Below, piece after piece: positions 6,300-59,000 of a stretch of DNA of 64,000 bases (position 1 is its first letter; the number at the start of each line of letters is the position of its first letter). The position numbers and the translations under genes were made by a program. The notes under the pieces were generated by a model that saw only the letters and a program-made list of their open reading frames with translations, was not told the DNA's origin and made no database searches. The stretch is taken from positions 13,585-77,584 of the forward strand of contig CAZAZW010000003.1 in NCBI GenBank assembly GCA_964489875.1. The letters are read 5' to 3'. Origin of the DNA: an uncultured Gammaproteobacteria bacterium. GTDB lineage: Bacteria; Patescibacteriota; Microgenomatia; Daviesbacterales; UBA10151.

Positions 6300-8580
<2,281 letters not shown>

Positions 8581-8581
<1 letters not shown>

Positions 8582-40329: not shown

Positions 40330-40421
40330 TGAATTTTGTTGACTGTTTCTATTATTTGCATAACCAAAAATAGTTGTCAATACCCCAATTCAGCCTCGGT
40401 TTTGTCAGTTTTTTAAAAGAT

Positions 40422-41330
40422 TTATCTACCTAGTCTCAAATACCAATCAATAATTTCCCGACCCCAAAAAAGCATGATTAAACTTCCCAACACTAAAAAG
40501 GGTCCAAAAGGGATAGTTTGACCAAAATGCTTTTTACCAACAGCAATAAGTCCTACTGAAAATATAGCACCTGTTAAAAATGATAAGACTAAAGCAAATA
40601 GCGCTTGCGGAAATCCCAGCATTATCCCTATAAATGCCCCCAGCTTAACATCCCCTCCGCCCATCCCTTTTCCACGGGTTATAATTATTAAACCCATAAA
40701 AAACCCACCTATTATTAAGGCTGTTAATATTGAACCAAAAAGGGGCTGGGCAGCTGCCAAAGCATGCCTTTGAAAATAATCACTTTGTGGAGGAAGAAGT
40801 TTTTGACCTACAAGAGTTTGAGATAAGGAGTAGTAAAGATATCCTATCTTATATAAAGTAATTGCCAATAGGAAAGAGGCCCCAATCCAAATAGCCGGAA
40901 TCACCACTCTATCCGGAATAAACATCTTTTTTAGGTCTGTCAAAAAAAGTATAGCCAAAACTGTTATGAAGAAAAGTTTATAAACAAGATCCGATAAAAG
41001 AATTGATAACTGAAAAACAGATTGCCACGTCGCTTCGCTCCTCGCAATGACAGCCGAGGTCTGCCAAAATAAAAACCCTATTAACACTCCCATTCCCACT
41101 TCCACTAATAGATATCCGATACCGATCTTCTTGTGGCAATATCTGCACTTTCCCCGAAGTATCAAAAAAGAGAAAATAGGGAAAAGGTCGTACCATGCCA
41201 GCTTGTGCCGGCATTTTGGACAGTACGACCTTCCCCAAAAAGATTTCTTACCTAAACTTCGGTCAGCGAGCGCCTTAACCAAGCTTCCCAAAACCATACC
41301 AATTAAAAACCCCGCTGACCCCCAAATCAT
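40422..41330 (-). CDS. pilD: Prepilin peptidase / N-methyltransferase
   Basis: CPKCRHKL..CRYCHKKI zinc motif, multi-TM body, GGGDVKL. The track start 41342 is GTG; an ATG lies at 41330. Confidence 0.88.
   Translation of the reverse strand: MIWGSAGFLIGMVLGSLVKALADRSLGKKSFWGRSYCPKCRHKLAWYDLFPIFSFLILRGKCRYCHKKIGIGYLLVEVGMGVLIGFLFWQTSAVIARSEATWQSVFQLSILLSDLVYKLFFITVLAILFLTDLKKMFIPDRVVIPAIWIGASFLLAITLYKIGYLYYSLSQTLVGQKLLPPQSDYFQRHALAAAQPLFGSILTALIIGGFFMGLIIITRGKGMGGGDVKLGAFIGIMLGFPQALFALVLSFLTGAIFSVGLIAVGKKHFGQTIPFGPFLVLGSLIMLFWGREIIDWYLRLGR
41019..41051. repeat. 33-bp half-copy of the GTCATTGCGA-type element inside pilD
   Basis: agattgccacgtcgcttcgctcctcgcaatgac. It matches the right half of the murC copy and encodes VIARSEATWQS. 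Confidence 0.7.
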
Positions 41331-45962: not shown

Positions 45963-46597
45963 ATGATTGCAAGGCTTTTAATTTCACCTGATTTGGAAAA
46001 AAGGGTAGAGGAGATCAAAAATATTTTAGCTTCCCACTTGACGAGTGGGAATACGAATCACCCGGATTTGCTATACATCAAAGATGGAGAAAAACTTGGG
46101 ATTGCAGAGGCCAGAAAGATAAAAGAACATTTTTCCTTAAAACCTTACTGCGCCAAAGGCAGGGTGGTAGTTTTAGAAGATGCATCGCCGTTAACCATTG
46201 AGGCTCAAAATGCCCTGTTAAAAACTTTAGAAGAATTACCTGAGGAGGCAACTTTAATCTTAGGAGCTACTTCAGATGCCAATTTTTTGCCTACAATCCT
46301 ATCGCGCTGCCGGGTTATCCATCTGGAAAGCGCAGTTTCTCATCCTAGTTCAAAGACAGACTTCACTCAGGACATCACAAAACTCCTTTCAGCTGATATG
46401 GAAGAAAGGTTTGGGTATATTGAAGGATTGAAAAATAAAGAAGGATTTTTAAAGGCATTGTTATTTTATTTCCATCAGGATGTATATAAAAACAAGGACT
46501 TTTTAGCAAAACTTTTACAAGCAGAAGAGTGGGCCAAACATAATGTCAATATTCGGGCAATTTTGGAATATTTAATGCTGGAAATGCCAAAGAAGAA

Positions 46598-46616
<19 letters not shown>
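45963..46616 (+). CDS. holB: DNA polymerase III delta-prime-like subunit, short form
   Basis: 217 aa. VVVLEDASPLTIEAQNALLKTLEELPEEATLILGA and ILSRCRVI. Confidence 0.75.
46031..46051. repeat. 21-nt hairpin TTCCCACT-TGACG-AGTGGGAA inside holB (the exact reverse complement occurs at 56541..56561)
   Basis: ttcccacttgacgagtgggaa, encoding SHLTSGN. Confidence 0.85.
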
Positions 46617-49374: not shown

Positions 49375-50856
49375 ATGGCTACAAAAGTACATTTTTTGGG
49401 TATTGGAGGCTCAGGCGCTTCAGGGGCAGCGGCTATTACGGAGGCTCAAGGCTTTGAGATCACCGGCTGTGACCTGGAACCCAACAATGAATTTACCACT
49501 ATTTTCAAACCAGACCAACTCCTCGTTGGACATTCCCCAGATCACATATTCCGTCATTGCGATCCGGCGAAGCCGGAGAAGCAATCTAGTTTGGAAGATA
49601 ACCCTACCAAGATTGCTTCGTCGCCTACGGCTCCTCGCAATGACGATGAGAATAACCATAACGATAGAACAATAGATATTCTGGCAGTCACTCCGGCCAT
49701 TTTTTCTTTAGACCCCAGTAACCCTGAACTTTTGGCAGCCAAAGAAAAAGGCATACCAGTAATTACCTGGCAACAATTTGTTGGTCAGTATCTGACCAAA
49801 GACAAATTTGTCATTGCCATTTGCGGCACCCACGGCAAAACCACTACCACAGCCATTATTGGCCAGTTATTAGAAGATGCCGGGATGGACCCGACAGTAC
49901 TTCTTGGAGCCATCGTCCCCAAATGGGGCACAAACTATCGCATACCTCGACAAAAAGTTCACGATCGTGAATATTTTGTCATAGAGGCAGACGAGTTTAA
50001 TGATAACTTTCTACCTACCAAACCTGATATTGCAGTAGTCACTAATATCGAAATGGACCACCCGGAATATTTTAAAGACTTTGAGACGGTTAAAGATAGC
50101 TTTAAAAGGTTTTTACTACAAACCAAACAAGCTGTGGTAGCTAACATGACTGACCCAGGAGTAGCTGAAGTTATGAAAGTAGTGATGAAAACGCCACATC
50201 AAATTTCCTCCGGCCGTGGGATATTTGAAACATATTTAGATTATTCCAGGAATGAACTGGGCATAAACTTACAGGTCCCCGGGGAATTTAATCGGTTAAA
50301 TGCCAAAGCTGCCATGGCGGTAGGGCTCTTGCTGGGAATAAAACCAGACACTATTAAAAAAAGTCTGGCAAACTTTACAGGAGCAAGCAGAAGGTTTGAA
50401 TATATCGGAGAATTTAATGGTGCAAAAGTTTATTCTGATTTTGGCCACCATCCGACGGAAATCGAAAAAACTATGGAAGCAGTTAGAGAAAAGTTTCCTA
50501 AGGAACGAATTTTACTGGTTTACCAACCACATATGTTTTCCAGAACCAAGGCTCTATTTAATGATTTTGTAAAAGTATTCCAAGATATTGCGGCTGATAA
50601 GCAAAGCTTGAAATTCTCGCAACGCTCGAATTTTAAAACTTTTATCCTGGATATTTACGCATCAAGGGAAGTGGATACTGGCTTAGTAACCAGCAAACAG
50701 CTTGTAGAAACCATTAACAAACCATCCGTATCATACCTGGGAGCTGTCCCAGGTTCCCTGGAAAAAATTAAGCCGGAAATTAAATCAGGGGATATTGTCT
50801 TTTTTATGAGCGCCGGAGATACTGATAAATTAGCTAAAGAACTAGTGGATTCCTAA
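49375..50856 (+). CDS. murC: UDP-N-acetylmuramate--L-alanine ligase
   Basis: VHFLGIGGSGASGAA, ICGTHGKTTTTAIIG, and a Mur ligase C-terminal domain. Confidence 0.9.
   Translation: MATKVHFLGIGGSGASGAAAITEAQGFEITGCDLEPNNEFTTIFKPDQLLVGHSPDHIFRHCDPAKPEKQSSLEDNPTKIASSPTAPRNDDENNHNDRTIDILAVTPAIFSLDPSNPELLAAKEKGIPVITWQQFVGQYLTKDKFVIAICGTHGKTTTTAIIGQLLEDAGMDPTVLLGAIVPKWGTNYRIPRQKVHDREYFVIEADEFNDNFLPTKPDIAVVTNIEMDHPEYFKDFETVKDSFKRFLLQTKQAVVANMTDPGVAEVMKVVMKTPHQISSGRGIFETYLDYSRNELGINLQVPGEFNRLNAKAAMAVGLLLGIKPDTIKKSLANFTGASRRFEYIGEFNGAKVYSDFGHHPTEIEKTMEAVREKFPKERILLVYQPHMFSRTKALFNDFVKVFQDIAADKQSLKFSQRSNFKTFILDIYASREVDTGLVTSKQLVETINKPSVSYLGAVPGSLEKIKPEIKSGDIVFFMSAGDTDKLAKELVDS
49553..49644. repeat. 92-bp GTCATTGCGA...TCGCAATGAC element inside murC
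   Basis: Perfect 10-bp terminal inverted repeat, inner agcaatct/agattgct inverted repeat, and a ccgg-cgaag-ccgg hairpin. Confidence 0.8.
50211..50232. repeat. 22-nt exact repeat inside murC (other copy at 6125..6146)
   Basis: cggccgtgggatatttgaaaca, encoding SGRGIFET. Confidence 0.8.
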
Positions 50857-55043: not shown

Positions 55044-55787
55044 ATGTATTCCAATATAAACGGACAAAATATTTATTACCAAAAAACCGGTGCAGGCAAA
55101 GATTTAATTCTGCTGCATGGTTGGGGAGAAAATGTTTCTACTTTCTGGCCGGCAGTGGAGCTGCTAAAAGACATGTTTACTTTATGGTTGATCGACTTGC
55201 CGGGATTTGGCAGATCTGATTTACCATTAAAAGCTTTGGGTAGCAGCGATTTTGCAAAAGTTGTTGCAGAGTTTATTAAGAAAAATAAAATTAGAAAGCC
55301 AGCTATTTTGGGCCATTCTTTTGGCGGCAAAGTTGCTATCAAATTAGCAGCAGAAAACCCAGATTTAATCAGTAAATTAATCCTAGTGGGAGCTTCCGGC
55401 CTGAAGCCGGATCTTTCTTTTCAAGAGTTAATCATTTATCCCTGGGCTAAATTTTTTCACTTTTTGTTCCCTGATATCTTCAATATAAAGAAAATAATCA
55501 GAATTAAATTTTATAGAAAAATAGAATCAGATTATGCAGATGCCGGAGCCATGAAAGACACCCTAATCAAGACTTTAACAGAAGATTTAACTGGTGATTT
55601 GAAAAAGATTAAAGTTGAAACACTGCTGATTTGGGGAGATAAGGATAGAGCAATTCCCTTAAAATACGGAAAAAGAATGTACCAACTGATTAGAAATTCT
55701 AAGCTCACCGTTTTAGAAGGAAAGGGTCATTTTTTACATGCCAATGACCCGGAAAGGTTTAGTTACTATGTCAAAGATTTTGTCTAA
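55044..55787 (+). CDS. Alpha/beta-fold hydrolase
   Basis: LILLHGWG and the nucleophile elbow GHSFGG. Confidence 0.8.
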   Translation: MYSNINGQNIYYQKTGAGKDLILLHGWGENVSTFWPAVELLKDMFTLWLIDLPGFGRSDLPLKALGSSDFAKVVAEFIKKNKIRKPAILGHSFGGKVAIKLAAENPDLISKLILVGASGLKPDLSFQELIIYPWAKFFHFLFPDIFNIKKIIRIKFYRKIESDYADAGAMKDTLIKTLTEDLTGDLKKIKVETLLIWGDKDRAIPLKYGKRMYQLIRNSKLTVLEGKGHFLHANDPERFSYYVKDFV

Positions 55788-57195
55788 AATTTTTCCTATT
55801 ATCGACCATCTTTATATTTACCAAATTTTGGAGTACAAATCCGGGGAATTTTTAATCTGGTTTTTGAAAAACCCTTTCAAAAGAAATTTACAAAAGAAAC
55901 ACAAACTTGAATGGACTCAAAAAGCCAAGCTGCTGGCTTTCTTTGGTATCACATTACTGATTTTAGATTCAGTGATAACCTCTTATCTATTAACCGGCAA
56001 ATTCTGGCTAAGCTTGATTTTGTTACCAGTAAAATCTTTGTATTCACCGCTATTTATAGTAGTTTCCCAAATTTTAATTTCACCTCTGGAATATTATCAA
56101 AAACAAAGAACACTTAGAGCAGCAAAAAAGAAACTATCGAAATTACCTAATTTAAAAATTGTCGCCATCACCGGTTCCTTTGGCAAAACTTCCACCAAAG
56201 ATATCCTCTATACACTGCTTTGGAAAAAATATTTTGTGGTCAAAACTCCCAAAAGCTTTAATACTCCTTTGGGAATTGCCCAAACCATTCTGGAGAACCT
56301 CAAAGAAAATACGGAAGTTTTCATCTGTGAAATCGGCGCCTACAAAAGAGGAGAGATTAAAAATCTGACTAAATTTCTTAATCCAAGAATAGGCATTATC
56401 ACTGCAATCGCCCCGCAGCACCTTGAACGGTTTGGGTCTTTGGAAAATATTGCCAAGGCTAAATTTGAACTGGTAGAAAACCTACCCAAAAACGGAGTTA
56501 CCATCCTAAATAACAAAAGCAATTGGTTACAAAAACTGGCTTCCCACTCGTCAAGTGGGAACGTAATTTTTTATGGAGATGAGAATAATCCATTTTATGC
56601 ATCTAATATCAGAACGGGAATCGTAGGAACTACTTTTCAAATCCACACCCCTAAAGGCCAAACAGAGATTAAGATACCCTTGATAGGAGAACACCATGTT
56701 CAAAATTTCTTAGCAGCTACTGCAGCTGCTCTAGCGTTAGGTTTAACTCTTTTTGAAATTAAAGGAAGGGCAAAATTGTTGTTGCCAACCCCACATAGGA
56801 TGGAGATTAAAAAAATGGGTAATATTATTTTAATTGATAACTCATTTAATACTAATCCAAAATCAGCCGAAGCATCTTTAAGTTTGCTAGCAAGTTTTAA
56901 AGAAAACAGGAAAATTGTTATAACCCCTGGGTTTGTGGAATTAGGGAAAGAAGCTGCTGAAGCAAATCAAGAATTTGGCCACGAAATTCTCTGCTTAGCA
57001 GACGAAGTCATAATTGTTGGAGAAAATGCCAAAAAGGATTTACTAGAAGGCATGAAAGATATTTATCCAAACCCAGAAGAATTCGTCCATTTTGCTAAAA
57101 GCACCCAAGAAGCATTAGTTCTTGCCCAGGAATTAACCCAGGGCATGGAAACAGTAGTACTCCTGGAAAACGACCTGCCAGACCAATATAGTTAA
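55768..57195 (+). CDS. murF: MurF-like Mur ligase with a membrane-spanning N-terminus
   Basis: AITGSFGKTSTKDIL, HVQNFLAATAAALALG, GFVELGKEA. Two predicted TM helices replace the usual N-domain. ATG 55738 is an alternative start. Confidence 0.8.
   Translation: MSKILSKIFPIIDHLYIYQILEYKSGEFLIWFLKNPFKRNLQKKHKLEWTQKAKLLAFFGITLLILDSVITSYLLTGKFWLSLILLPVKSLYSPLFIVVSQILISPLEYYQKQRTLRAAKKKLSKLPNLKIVAITGSFGKTSTKDILYTLLWKKYFVVKTPKSFNTPLGIAQTILENLKENTEVFICEIGAYKRGEIKNLTKFLNPRIGIITAIAPQHLERFGSLENIAKAKFELVENLPKNGVTILNNKSNWLQKLASHSSSGNVIFYGDENNPFYASNIRTGIVGTTFQIHTPKGQTEIKIPLIGEHHVQNFLAATAAALALGLTLFEIKGRAKLLLPTPHRMEIKKMGNIILIDNSFNTNPKSAEASLSLLASFKENRKIVITPGFVELGKEAAEANQEFGHEILCLADEVIIVGENAKKDLLEGMKDIYPNPEEFVHFAKSTQEALVLAQELTQGMETVVLLENDLPDQYS
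56541..56561. repeat. 21-nt hairpin TTCCCACT-CGTCA-AGTGGGAA inside murF (reverse complement of 46031..46051)
   Basis: ttcccactcgtcaagtgggaa, encoding SHSSSGN. Confidence 0.85.
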
Positions 57196-58361
57196 TTTTT
57201 TATTCCACCTTTTTCAGCCATGGAGGAGAGTAAACCGGATTCAAAGGTATATTGAGTCTTACTTTGATTTTCTGCCCGCTTTAGGGCAAACTCTATCAAC
57301 AATCCCAGAAGTTTAGAAAATTTTATCTCTGATTTTTCCCATAGATAAAAAGCAAAAGAACCAGGAGGAGTATTTATTTCATTAATCCAAAATTTGTTCT
57401 TTTCTTTATCTACGAAGTAGTCTATTCTAGCTACACCACATCCATCTAAAGCTTTAAAAACTTTTACAGTTGTTTTCTGTATCTCCTTGGCTAATTTTTC
57501 CGGGATTGGGGCCGGAATAATCCGGGAAAGGGAAGCCATACCCACTTCTTTGCTGCTCTTGCCGCCGCCTTTTTGATATTTATCAGCAAAAGACAAAACT
57601 TCACTTGATCCCACCGGCATCTCACAAACAGAAACCATAACTTCCTCATAACCTAAAGCAGAACAATTTACTTCAATAGTATCTTCAAAAGCCTCTTCAA
57701 TTAAAGCTTTTTCGGAATAAGTAAATGCCACCTCCAGGGCAAAGTTCAAAGAATCGCCGTCTTGAGCCTTATTTACTCCAATAGAAGAACCAATGGTAGC
57801 CGGCTTAACAAACATGGGGAATTGTAAAACCTTTTTGGCTTCTGTTAAAACTTTTTTAGGATCTTTTAGAAAATCAATTCTGCTGACAGCAAGGTAACGG
57901 CAAACCGGCAAACCCAATTCCTTAAAGATAGATTTTGAAATGGCCTTATCCATCGCAATACCAGAAGATAAAACATTAAATCCGGTATAAGGAATTTGAT
58001 ACATCTCCAAGAGTCCCTGTATACAGCCATCTTCGCCAAAAGACCCATGGAAAGAAAGAAATGCGACATCTAAGGGAATGAATCTGGAAAACAAACCTTG
58101 AGTAAAAAATCCACCTTGATTTTCTTTTCTAGCTAGATTGATTTTAGTGGAGGATAAAAGCAAAGAATCTATATCTTTATAATTTTTTAAGTCCAAAAAC
58201 TTCCGGTTAGTATAAAACTCACCCTTTTTACTTACATAAATAGGGATTATTTCGTAGCGCTCTTTATCAATATTCTCATAGACCTGAAGGGCTGTTAATA
58301 CAGAAACCTCATGTTCAACCGACCTTCCCCCAAAAAACAACCCAACTTTCAATTTGTTCAT
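57192..58361 (-). CDS. ddl: D-alanine--D-alanine ligase
   Basis: KVGLFFGGRSVEHEVSVLTA and an ATP-grasp pattern. Confidence 0.9.
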   Translation of the reverse strand: MNKLKVGLFFGGRSVEHEVSVLTALQVYENIDKERYEIIPIYVSKKGEFYTNRKFLDLKNYKDIDSLLLSSTKINLARKENQGGFFTQGLFSRFIPLDVAFLSFHGSFGEDGCIQGLLEMYQIPYTGFNVLSSGIAMDKAISKSIFKELGLPVCRYLAVSRIDFLKDPKKVLTEAKKVLQFPMFVKPATIGSSIGVNKAQDGDSLNFALEVAFTYSEKALIEEAFEDTIEVNCSALGYEEVMVSVCEMPVGSSEVLSFADKYQKGGGKSSKEVGMASLSRIIPAPIPEKLAKEIQKTTVKVFKALDGCGVARIDYFVDKEKNKFWINEINTPPGSFAFYLWEKSEIKFSKLLGLLIEFALKRAENQSKTQYTFESGLLSSMAEKGGIKN

Positions 58362-58368
58362 TATTCGT

Positions 58369-58374
58369 ATTATA
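58369..58374 (-). promoter_or_regulatory. -10 box TATAAT placed 7 nt upstream of the ddl ATG; the opposite strand reads TATTAT for def
   Basis: Minus strand reads ccagagTATAATacgaataATG. Confidence 0.45.
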
Positions 58375-58391
58375 CTCTGGGGGGCAACAAA

Positions 58392-59000
58392 ATGAAAAAT
58401 CTTTTCTTAAGACCAAATGATCCGCGCTTAAGAAAAGTTGCTGAGGAAATTCCTCAAGACCAAATTAATTCAGAGAGTACTAAAAAAATAATTAAGACCA
58501 TGCTAAAAGTGGTCCAACCATTTATGGTAGGACTGGCTGCACTACAGATTGGCATTCCTAAAAGGATCATCTTGGTAGATATAAGAGCAGACGGAAAAGG
58601 CCCGCTTCGCCAGCGAAGCGAGGCGGGCAAAGTAGGAAATTTGCGAATATACATCAACCCAAAAATAATCTGGAAATCTAAAAGAGAAGGGGAGTGGTAT
58701 GAGGGTTGTTACTCCACCGGCAGAGTTTGCGGCATAGTCTCCCGTCCAATCTCCATCAAAATCCAAGCATTTGTATTGACACCCCAAGGGTGGAGCCTCA
58801 AATTTGTAGAAGAAAAGCGGTCAGATTATACAGCCAGGATTTTTCAGCATGAAATTGACCATCTTGATGGGAAGTTATTCATGGACCATATTAAAAATCC
58901 GGACCATCTACATTGGGTAGAAGAAAATGAATTTCCGCTTTACAGAAACAAACAAGCCTGGAGAAATTGGCCCAAAAAATACCCTTTACCCCTTGCTTAG
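58392..59000 (+). CDS. def: Peptide deformylase
   Basis: GLAALQIGIPKR, EGCYS and HEIDHLDG. The start is taken at MKNLFLRPNDP. Confidence 0.88.
   Translation: MKNLFLRPNDPRLRKVAEEIPQDQINSESTKKIIKTMLKVVQPFMVGLAALQIGIPKRIILVDIRADGKGPLRQRSEAGKVGNLRIYINPKIIWKSKREGEWYEGCYSTGRVCGIVSRPISIKIQAFVLTPQGWSLKFVEEKRSDYTARIFQHEIDHLDGKLFMDHIKNPDHLHWVEENEFPLYRNKQAWRNWPKKYPLPLA

Follow-up and report, generated by a model that had tools for sequence, protein, structure and literature searches.

A hairpin repeat dispersed in frame through genes of Daviesbacteria, probably the core of a REP-type element associated with RAYT-like Y1 transposases

A 21-nt hairpin, TTCCCACTTGACGAGTGGGAA, occurs within two unrelated genes, holB and murF, of a 64-kb stretch of DNA (64,000 nt of contig CAZAZW010000003.1; hereafter the window, meaning the whole of that stretch). 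We think that this 21-mer is probably the stem-loop core of an element of the repetitive extragenic palindrome (REP) type, cognate to a Y1 (HUH) transposase of the IS200/IS605 superfamily that resembles the REP-associated tyrosine transposases (RAYTs). The hairpin is dispersed, is conserved at the nucleotide level and adjoins Y1 genes in two phyla; it has sister families with covarying stems, and at one locus a transposase unit is present in one genome and absent from others. The copies in the window and their host genes are as follows, all on the + strand.

46031..46051, +: putative REP-type hairpin core, copy 1, TTCCCACT-TGACG-AGTGGGAA; codons S24-N30 of the holB-like protein
46023..46059, +: extended copy 1, ATTTTAGC / core / TACGAATC; its left flank agrees with the consensus yTAGC and its right flank belongs to the rarer TACG type
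56541..56561, +: putative REP-type hairpin core, copy 2, TTCCCACT-CGTCA-AGTGGGAA; codons S269-N275 of MurF
56533..56569, +: extended copy 2, AAACTGGC / core / CGTAATTT; fits the imperfect-palindrome consensus AATyTAgc-core-cgTArATT
45963..46616, +: host gene 1, a short DNA polymerase III delta'-like (holB-like) open reading frame (ORF) of 217 aa; Pfam PF13177 DNA_pol3_delta2 at residues 30-123, E 1e-24
55738..57195, +: host gene 2, MurF (UDP-MurNAc-tripeptide--D-Ala-D-Ala ligase), 485 aa; Pfam Mur_ligase_M and Mur_ligase_C

The original prediction, made from the letters of the window alone, placed the 21-mer in holB and its exact reverse complement in murF, and the window sequence agrees. No further match with up to three mismatches is present in the 64-kb window, and 100 dinucleotide-preserving shuffles yielded no match at all; no such two-copy coincidence is expected by chance. 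Folding and ORF phase likewise bear out the predicted 8-bp stem and 5-nt loop, in frame in both genes (DNA minimum free energy −7.2 and −7.1 kcal/mol for the two cores; z about −5 to −6). Some 16 perfect 8-bp hairpins occur in the window; it is the shared sequence, and not the hairpin shape, that is non-random. Both copies have the codon phase gcT TCC CAC nnn nnn AGT GGG AAy, translated as A-S-H-L-T-S-G-N in copy 1 and A-S-H-S-S-S-G-N in copy 2; as had been foreseen, the palindromic stem gives S-H-x-x-S-G-N with the loop either way round. The claim that the element is present in both orientations was right for the loop, which is inverted between the copies, but not for the flanks, which point the same way: in both copies GC lies 5' of the core on the + strand, as in the left flank of the extended repeat, while the consensus CGTA to the right of the core is found, of the two, only at copy 2. 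For extended copy 2 the minimum free energy structure also predicts an outer A/T helix. No Rfam family reached threshold anywhere in the window.

The closest structures to host gene 2 in the PDB, 1GG4 and 4QDI, are both MurF (from E. coli and Acinetobacter). In the AlphaFold model of the window MurF (mean predicted local distance difference test score 87.6), residues S269-N275 form the end of helix 262-269 and the loop 270-275 before strand 276-279, so that the heptapeptide appears to occupy a tolerated helix-to-strand loop. A similar position, with a helix ending in L-A followed by a strand starting with V, is suggested for PrmC, MurC and a glycosyltransferase by their sequence context alone.

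One genome per species was scanned with the pattern TTCCCACT-N5-AGTGGGAA, which matched at least 119 stretches; copy numbers are lower bounds, and the L-numbers used below are labels of DNA loci retrieved from other genomes. The loop is TGACG or CGTCA in 25 of the 106 matches listed, against ~0.2 expected, and one further exact copy lies in L132. By manual count the matches listed contain at least 26 exact 21-mers in 13 assemblies; nearly all of these assemblies are Daviesbacteria, Microgenomates or Patescibacteria, and a few are low-GC bins labelled 'uncultured Gammaproteobacteria'. The largest number in one genome was at least 10 exact copies (JAUSHE01). One-base loop variants of the 21-mer occur in Shapirobacteria and Levyibacteriota.

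About 27 of 35 copies among the matches listed lie within ORFs of at least 150 aa, and the genes concerned are unrelated. They comprise two glycosyltransferases, PheT (two sites), CysS, RecG, a PEP-utilising enzyme, Def (peptide deformylase), AtpG (ATP synthase gamma), PrmC, a methyltransferase and a membrane protein, together with the Mur-type proteins MurC (two sites), MurD, MurF, a MurT-like ligase and a MurL-type fusion. When orthologous sites were merged by hand, ~21 of 24 independent coding sites among the matches listed had the SHxxSGN phase (P ~6e-8 under equal phases, by our own calculation), the usual peptide being (L)ASH-xx-SGN(V). The two other phases give LPTRQVG and FPLDEWE, and in PrmC one and the same site holds the element in a different phase in each of two genomes, L132 and L069. 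Copies were also found in non-coding DNA, some of them adjoining transposase genes. Dispersal of the exact 21-mer over unrelated genes, other phases and non-coding positions supports the original proposal that its origin lies at the DNA level and not at the protein level.

The conserved sequence extends beyond the core. A comparison of 37 copies shows conserved outward flanks that differ between the two sides, GCT(A/G)AAT against CGTA(A/G)AT, and the full unit of ~35–37 nt, AATyTAgc-stem-loop-stem-cgTArATT, is an imperfect palindrome with a 2x2 mismatch beside the stem. The predicted repeat length of 21 nt is thus exact for the core but falls short of the whole unit. Both loop orientations occur with one and the same flank orientation among the 37 copies. 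At the murF site the window has the loop CGTCA and L228 has TGACG, with identical flanks, indicating that the loop flips in place.

Homologues of the window's holB and murF genes belong to Candidatus Daviesbacteria (Microgenomates, Candidate Phyla Radiation, CPR), and orthologous sites could be compared at the DNA level. The window and the loci L218, L219, L028, L065, L030 and L224 all have the stem codons TCC CAC ... AGT GGG in holB, while the synonymous sites beside them vary freely. The loops found at the holB site are TGACG, C-TAACG (L218, in which the eighth stem pair is broken), ATCGGA and TGGGA. The stem codons are invariant too at murF (window, L228 and L227) and at MurC (L219, L224 and L228); given the codon usage of the window, the joint probability of the four stem codons is 0.00125 per copy. 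The invariance of these codons beside differing synonymous neighbours identifies the hairpin as a DNA-level element. A heptapeptide kept without the palindrome had been named in advance as contrary evidence, and no such case was seen among the orthologues examined at the DNA level: every one of them that has the S-H..S-G-N residues also has the stem codons TCC CAC/AGT GGG.

In alignments of 120 sequences each, the holB and murF sites show the same small set of variants, ASH[LIMS]xSGN[VT], ALHLEGVNV and LHLPGVN, and (S/C)NL[KE]G[CY]. A nested variant, ASHITRGL[IV]AQxSGN, was found in orthologues of both genes, as was a half-duplication variant, ASHIASHIGSGN; half-site duplications lie beside copies in L065, L043, L109 and L036. 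A 7-residue indel had been predicted at both window sites and was not observed. Orthologues without hairpin variants are only 1–2 residues shorter there (element-less holB linkers by ~2 residues, the closest element-less murF orthologue by one codon), and MurF aligns with the solved E. coli and Acinetobacter proteins with 0–1 gap across the heptapeptide; lengths thus differ by 0–2 residues. With lengths so nearly equal, a straightforward insertion of seven codons was rejected for holB and murF of the window.

The same sites also house sister hairpins. We refer to the 21-mer family as family A. At the holB site, L222 has a family B hairpin, TTACACCT-TCC-AGGTGTAA, L221 a decayed TGCAACCT-GGA-AGGCTAC, L223 a CCTGCC...GGCAGG hairpin nested in a decaying family A copy, and L219 a 24-nt hairpin nested in the loop, a nested form that recurs in murF of L227. 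At the murF site families A and B fill an identical stretch of 27 nt (GCT...GTA), and B differs from A by paired changes, CC>TA in one arm and GG>TA in the other, the latter slightly decayed. Changes close to the predicted seven codons do occur outside the window sites. In holB of L229 a sister hairpin, CTGCCTGCCGGCAGGCAAGGT (LPAGRQG), forms a clean insertion of +21 nt beside the intact ancestral linker. At MurC the empty site of L218, CAT CTG GAA AAC GTA GAT, can be compared with the filled site of L228, CAT TTA GCT TCC CAC TCG TCA AGT GGG AAC GTA GAT, a net gain of 18 nt. In L224 a loop variant, TTCCCACATCGGAAGTGGGAA (ATCGGAA), is present in holB, MurC and MurD, three copies within 20 kb, so that copies within a genome share a variant.

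The MurC gene of the window itself (ORF 49375-50856, +) carries a ~40-residue low-complexity insert (HIFRHCDPAKPEKQSSLEDNPTKIASSPTAPRNDDENNHNDRT) at 49519-49683, where relatives have either the 21-mer (L228, L219 and L224) or nothing (L218). This site is a hot spot filled by different repeats in different genomes. At murF, the orthologues P0123 and P0124 (DNA: L225) are 82–86% identical to the window protein overall and differ sharply from it in ~45 residues around the hairpin site, where they have an ELPQSL...ASTVKAKTIF type of segment and the window an ELVENL...ASHSSSGNVIF type; this pattern suggests mosaic recombination between lineages. A metagenome scan for murF relatives with generic Mur-ligase patterns returned only distant homologues (up to 44% identity).

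A type IV pilus cluster adjoins holB, and it was in the holB neighbourhood of L219 that a 216-aa gene with a Y1_Tnp match was found with the hairpin GATTACACCCCAAGGGTGTAATCGGAGGTT on both sides. This hairpin (TTACACC..GGTGTAA, family B) encodes the 'LHPKGV' variant of murF orthologues. Gene and hairpins make up a 918-bp block (L219:3418-4335) between the pilin and prepilin peptidase genes. At that spot the window has 41 nt (40381-40421), L218 and L224 are without such a gene, and L224 has an AbiEii-like gene instead; the comparison of the 918-bp block with the 41 nt of the window hints at mobility.

When the L219 Y1 protein was used as a tblastn query, several of the loci matched were ones that had been retrieved only via the 21-mer. 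The Y1 gene of L109 has the exact 21-mer on both sides, in ambiguous orientation, and a third copy inside the gene; that of L020 has an exact copy immediately upstream; and that of L121 has one 90 nt downstream, its own flanks belonging to a third family, E (TCCGATCC-C-GGATCGGA). Three Y1 genes thus correspond to three different flanking families, the 21-mer in L109, family B in L219 and family E in L121, in a small sample assessed by inspection and not as a formal co-phylogeny. All three proteins have MPNHFH or MPNHIH (the HUH motif) and YIHxN with the catalytic tyrosine, and all pass the Pfam Y1_Tnp gathering score of 23 bits (L109 34.4, L121 41.9 and L219 27.8). Their only NCBIfam match is to 'REP-associated tyrosine transposase', NF047646. 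The clade flanked by the 21-mer (clade 1) is very large in Daviesbacteria, Levybacteria and Microgenomates, with 7,942 of 8,000 scored candidates at E <=0.001; the sources call them 'transposase'.

In this clade the hairpin stem also lies within the Y1 gene, as in L110, L036 and L039 as well as L109, where it directly follows the catalytic Tyr and itself encodes the residues N(S/P)FPLxxWE (YIHxN-FPLxxWE). The genes with an internal stem, all encoding YIHRN-S/P-FPL-xx-WE, are:

L109:2309-2953, −: Y1 gene with internal stem
L110:6044-6682: Y1 gene with internal stem
L036:1848-2495, −: Y1 gene with internal stem
L039:2-286: Y1 gene with internal stem

YIHxN-FPLxxWE fits 83 of 120 homologues. In 82 of these 83 the residue before W can be encoded by NNG, and the residue after FP always has a codon starting with C. 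These residue choices suggest a constraint at the nucleotide level on the stem inside the Y1 gene.

The same stem accompanies RAYTs in a second phylum. About 40 other matches among those listed come from Campylobacterota (Sulfuricurvum, Sulfurimonas, Sulfurovum, Helicobacter and Arcobacteraceae; L049, L131, L070 and ~35 further loci within L024-L137), where the repeat has the form tatgca / TTCCCACT-N5-AGTGGGAA / cgag and is essentially extragenic and multi-copy. Two RAYT genes there are flanked by the hairpin in inverted arrangement, the classical REPtron layout of Nunvar et al. (PMC2817692):

L049:5439-6177: RAYT gene with inverted TTCCCAC..GTGGGAA hairpins; HUH motif, catalytic Tyr, NPVKRG
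L131:2340-3050: RAYT gene with inverted TTCCCAC..GTGGGAA hairpins; HUH motif, catalytic Tyr, NPVKRG

The L049 protein, the one scored of the three Campylobacterota RAYTs, reaches 96.8 bits and passes the NCBIfam RAYT cut-off of 80 bits; L131 is a close homologue. NPVKRG or NPIKRG is present in the RAYTs of L049, L131 and L070. The L070 gene has only a degenerate copy downstream (ATTCCCCCTC..GTGGGAA) and an intact copy ~550 nt upstream beside a truncated gene copy.

Further occurrences of the stem were noted outside these groups. A Methylococcaceae bin has a separate variant of the TTCCCACT/AGTGGGAA repeat with the flanks ctag / ttcata. Among viral contigs, 18 stretches match the stem, none with the TGACG/CGTCA loop. 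One 106-kb viral contig, IMGVR_UViG_3300027987_000055 (L001, L012), has six apparently intergenic hairpins, TTCCCACTC(TTTG/AAAG/AAGG)AGTGGGAA, with the same stem and another loop and flanks; these are probably the phage's own regulatory or terminator hairpin, unrelated to the 21-mer.

On the REP-type reading, the full unit (AAT)yTAGC-TTCCCACT-N5-AGTGGGAA-CGTAr(AT) would be one of several sister families, each cognate to its own Y1 enzyme. By analogy with characterised RAYT and IS200-type enzymes, the hairpin would form where DNA is single-stranded, as at the replication fork, and would be bound and cut by the transposase, whereby copies would spread or be homogenised within the genome. In gene-dense CPR genomes of ~1 Mb, copies would survive only where they are harmless, in frame inside genes; the 21-nt core keeps the frame, and its commonest phase would give the small polar S-H-x-x-S-G-N, tolerated in surface linkers. 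We infer on this reading that the transposase acts on the hairpin, that transposition gave rise to the copies and that these are neutral to the host, not functional.

Several observations weigh against this reading. The CPR hairpin does not have the GT(A/G)G head 5' of classical REPs; GTA(G/A) is found instead on the 3' side, one base from the hairpin. The three CPR proteins score 39.4, 55.8 and 52.5 bits against NF047646, under its 80-bit cut-off, and in the 21-mer-flanked clade N(S/P)FPLxxWE replaces the RAYT motif NP(L/V)(R/K)xG (L219 has a partial NPLVSG and L121 has NPVSSY). The two 30-nt hairpins that flank the L219 gene are direct and not inverted, and no Y1 transposase gene was found in the 64-kb window. 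In holB and murF the element is about as long as the segment that it overlays, and a near-zero length change is not what simple cut-and-paste insertion predicts. Occupation of the same sites across orthologues of 60–80% identity points to long residence, not to recent movement.

The REP account also leaves the near-zero length change, the loop flips in situ, the phase bias and the stem inside the clade-1 Y1 gene unexplained. An alternative, to which we attach a small but appreciable probability, is that the Y1 enzyme does not simply insert the hairpins but drives short-patch, template-directed overwriting of tolerant loop-coding segments, for example with excised single-stranded hairpin DNA annealing at the replication fork via its A/T-rich outer arms; the stem inside the Y1 gene would then be a regulatory site or an internal end. 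Overwriting of this kind would account for length changes near zero, loop flips, family swaps at the same codons and loop variants shared within a genome. If it is true, this family would also be the source of the dedicated enzyme that is 'missing' from dRS3/CGTC-like REPs.

Other explanations dispense with the transposase. The 21-mer could be a DNA or RNA signal maintained by host selection or by drive, such as a DNA-uptake-type signal of a naturally competent CPR cell, a protein-binding or chromosome-organising site or an mRNA hairpin with an effect on decay or translation, written into tolerant codons by point mutation and recombination. Existing segments overlaid without length change at murF, holB and PrmC, as uptake sequences are in coding regions, fit such a signal, as do the conservation of the stem at orthologous sites over deep divergence, the type IV pilus cluster next to holB, and the palindromic stem, which gives the same RNA stem from every copy whatever its orientation. 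We nevertheless consider it improbable, for it does not account for the physical association with Y1 genes in two phyla or for several covarying sister families in one genome, each beside its own Y1 gene. Copies are sparse, with 2 in the 64 kb of the window and at least 10 in one genome, Rfam gives no match in the window, and loop variants common to several genes of one genome (ATCGGAA three times in L224) fit copying better than independent selection. The copies might instead have spread by template switching at quasi-palindromes and short-patch gene conversion, with Y1 genes merely landing at hairpins; IS elements are known to insert at REPs (cited in PMC3116915). The murF loop flip between the window and L228 with unchanged flanks, the half-site duplications in L065, L043, L109 and L036, replacement without length change and the different families at the same sites would all suit this mechanism. 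Switching within one hairpin, however, cannot yield identical 21-mers in unrelated genes together with their conserved flanks, and homologous conversion would have to work with an arm of only 8 bp, which is very short. Moreover, every Y1 clade has a family of its own to either side, with the canonical inverted REPtron layout in Campylobacterota; spread of this kind therefore also has a low probability.

The remaining readings fare worse. In favour of ASHxxSGN as a functional peptide, arrived at by separate selection in many proteins, one might cite its conservation in many holB and murF orthologues and the strongly favoured reading phase. Synonymous codon choice is nevertheless invariant (P 0.00125 per copy), copies exist in the LPTRQVG and FPLDEWE phases and in non-coding DNA, the middle residues switch between LT and SS by mere loop inversion, and the host proteins and structural contexts are unrelated. 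As no SHxxSGN orthologue with non-palindromic codons was seen, a protein motif is effectively refuted and retains a very small probability. A chance coincidence of two hairpins, for which the frequency of perfect 8-bp hairpins in the window (~16) might speak, is refuted by the absence of matches in 100 shuffles and by the recurrence of the 21-mer in 13 other assemblies; its probability is minimal. A CRISPR repeat was rejected since the copies are not arrayed, and a terminator since the hairpins lie inside ORFs without a T-run.

REPs and RAYTs were described as GTAG-tagged repetitive extragenic palindromes and their transposases (Nunvar et al. 2010, PMC2817692; Bertels & Rainey 2011, PMC3116915). 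With REPtrons the CPR system shares a short (~21–37 nt), imperfect and dispersed palindrome that flanks Y1 (HUH) transposase genes, several families per genome with a transposase each, palindromes kept by complementary changes, and a stem that, inverted, flanks a Campylobacterota RAYT above the NCBIfam cut-off and a close homologue. It differs in that its copies are mostly intragenic and in frame whereas REPs are mostly extragenic, that they number at least 10 in the best-sampled genome and 2 in the 64-kb window rather than hundreds, and that its transposases are distant proteins of ~215 aa. The element behaves as a REP/RAYT system does, yet it is a remote member that had not been catalogued before. 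It departs from strict REPtrons in the GTAG head, the extragenic location, the cut-off of the curated hidden Markov model and the C-terminal RAYT motif. Literature searches aimed at CPR returned no report of REPs or RAYTs, and none combining RAYTs with Patescibacteria.

GTAG- and CGTC-tagged REPs have been catalogued in eight phyla (Di Nocera et al. 2013, PMC3733652). Intragenic REP units are on record there as a minority class, many of them in replication and repair genes and including Rickettsia RPE-4 and RPE-6, and CGTC REPs, reported without a dedicated transposase, consist of a tag, an 8–9-bp stem whose first two pairs are A/T, a 4–5-nt loop and a 3-nt tail (PMC3733652). The 21-mer resembles the CGTC REPs (Neisseria dRS3, Rickettsia RPE-4/RPE-6) in its 8-bp stem with T-A as the first two pairs and its 5-nt loop, and its stem TTCCCAC resembles the TTCCCGC stem at 7940-7959 of the window. 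The dRS3 repeat has the form ATTCCC-N8-GGGAAT. Unlike CGTC REPs, the 21-mer has ends of the TACG/YRYR tag and GCT tail type and not CGTC/TGTC/CCTC with CCA, and its family flanks Y1 genes. The hairpin at 7940-7959 is one of two coding hairpins that stand tail to tail, ~24 nt apart, in atpG of the window (ATP synthase gamma-like ORF 7673-8581, −):

7936-7962, +: atpG hairpin 1, TGTC-ATTCCCGC-GCAG-GCGGGAAT-CCA; fits the CGTC-1 description
7986-8013, −: atpG hairpin 2, TGTC-ATCCCGAC-GGATG-TCGGGAT-CCA

Both fit the published architecture of CGTC-tagged REPs (dRS3/RPE-6 type) and encode the peptides LDSRLRGND and VIPTDVGI; the stem recurs at L020:3508.

Uptake sequences typically occur about once per kb, whereas the 64-kb window has only 2 copies of the 21-mer and the best-sampled genome at least 10. 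Nor are they hairpins with covarying stems or tied to transposase genes. What DNA uptake sequences (Pasteurellaceae USS, Neisseria DUS; PMC2346458) have in common with the 21-mer is that a DNA motif imposes peptides on tolerant segments, with length kept and a bias of reading frame. Closer in genomic setting is RPE-1, a palindromic in-frame repeat of 105–146 bp that adds 35–50 residues to host proteins that stay functional (Ogata et al. 2000, reviewed in PMC2229807). In both cases palindromic repeats of selfish type are tolerated in frame in conserved genes of a small-genome bacterium. In CPR, however, the core is 21 nt and the unit ~37 nt, the net change is 0–2 residues in murF and holB and 6–7 elsewhere, and no transposase is known for RPE. 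IS200/IS605 elements and their hairpin-bearing miniature derivatives have in common with the CPR system the Y1 HUH transposase and hairpins near both ends, the direct hairpins of L219 being like left and right ends and the unit being present or absent at a syntenic site. In contrast to these, nothing points to multiple full-length copies identical to one another, the CPR Y1 proteins are longer (typical TnpA averages <150 aa; PMC2817692), and the dispersed units are single hairpins of 21–37 nt and not two-ended miniature elements.

Intragenic REPs are already known elsewhere (PMC3733652); what is new here is a distant CPR family tied to Y1 genes. The CPR (Microgenomates/Daviesbacteria) would thereby join the lineages with REP-type repeats and RAYT-like transposases. 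It illustrates the fate of such repeats where intergenic space is nearly gone, as they are kept inside essential genes (holB, Mur ligases, aminoacyl-tRNA synthetases and ATP synthase gamma) as short stereotyped peptides. Recurrent CPR peptides such as ASHLTSGN, LHPKGV, LPAGRQG and VIARSEA are then footprints of DNA repeats and not protein motifs, and alignments, domain calls and phylogenies can be led astray by them. The hairpins are also natural markers of permissive loops, and the pair of hairpin and enzyme is tractable for testing how RAYT-type enzymes spread or homogenise repeats.

The window contains other coding repeats. A second dispersed repeat, GTCATTGCGAGGAGC...GACGAAGCAATC, occurs at 41020-41051 (−), 49553-49586 (+) and 49611-49644 (−). 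The copy in the prepilin peptidase ORF encodes VIARSEATWQS, which is also present in the L219 orthologue; the inverted doublet inside MurC can fold to one long, REPIN-like hairpin (RNA minimum free energy −47 kcal/mol, 49536-49650). A perfect hairpin, CGCTTCGCC-AG-CGAAGCG, lies at 58603-58620 in the ORF 58311-59000 (+) and encodes PLRQRSEAG; a similar sequence, CGCTCCGCCTGCGGAGCG, occurs in PheT of L031 where L052 has the 21-mer.

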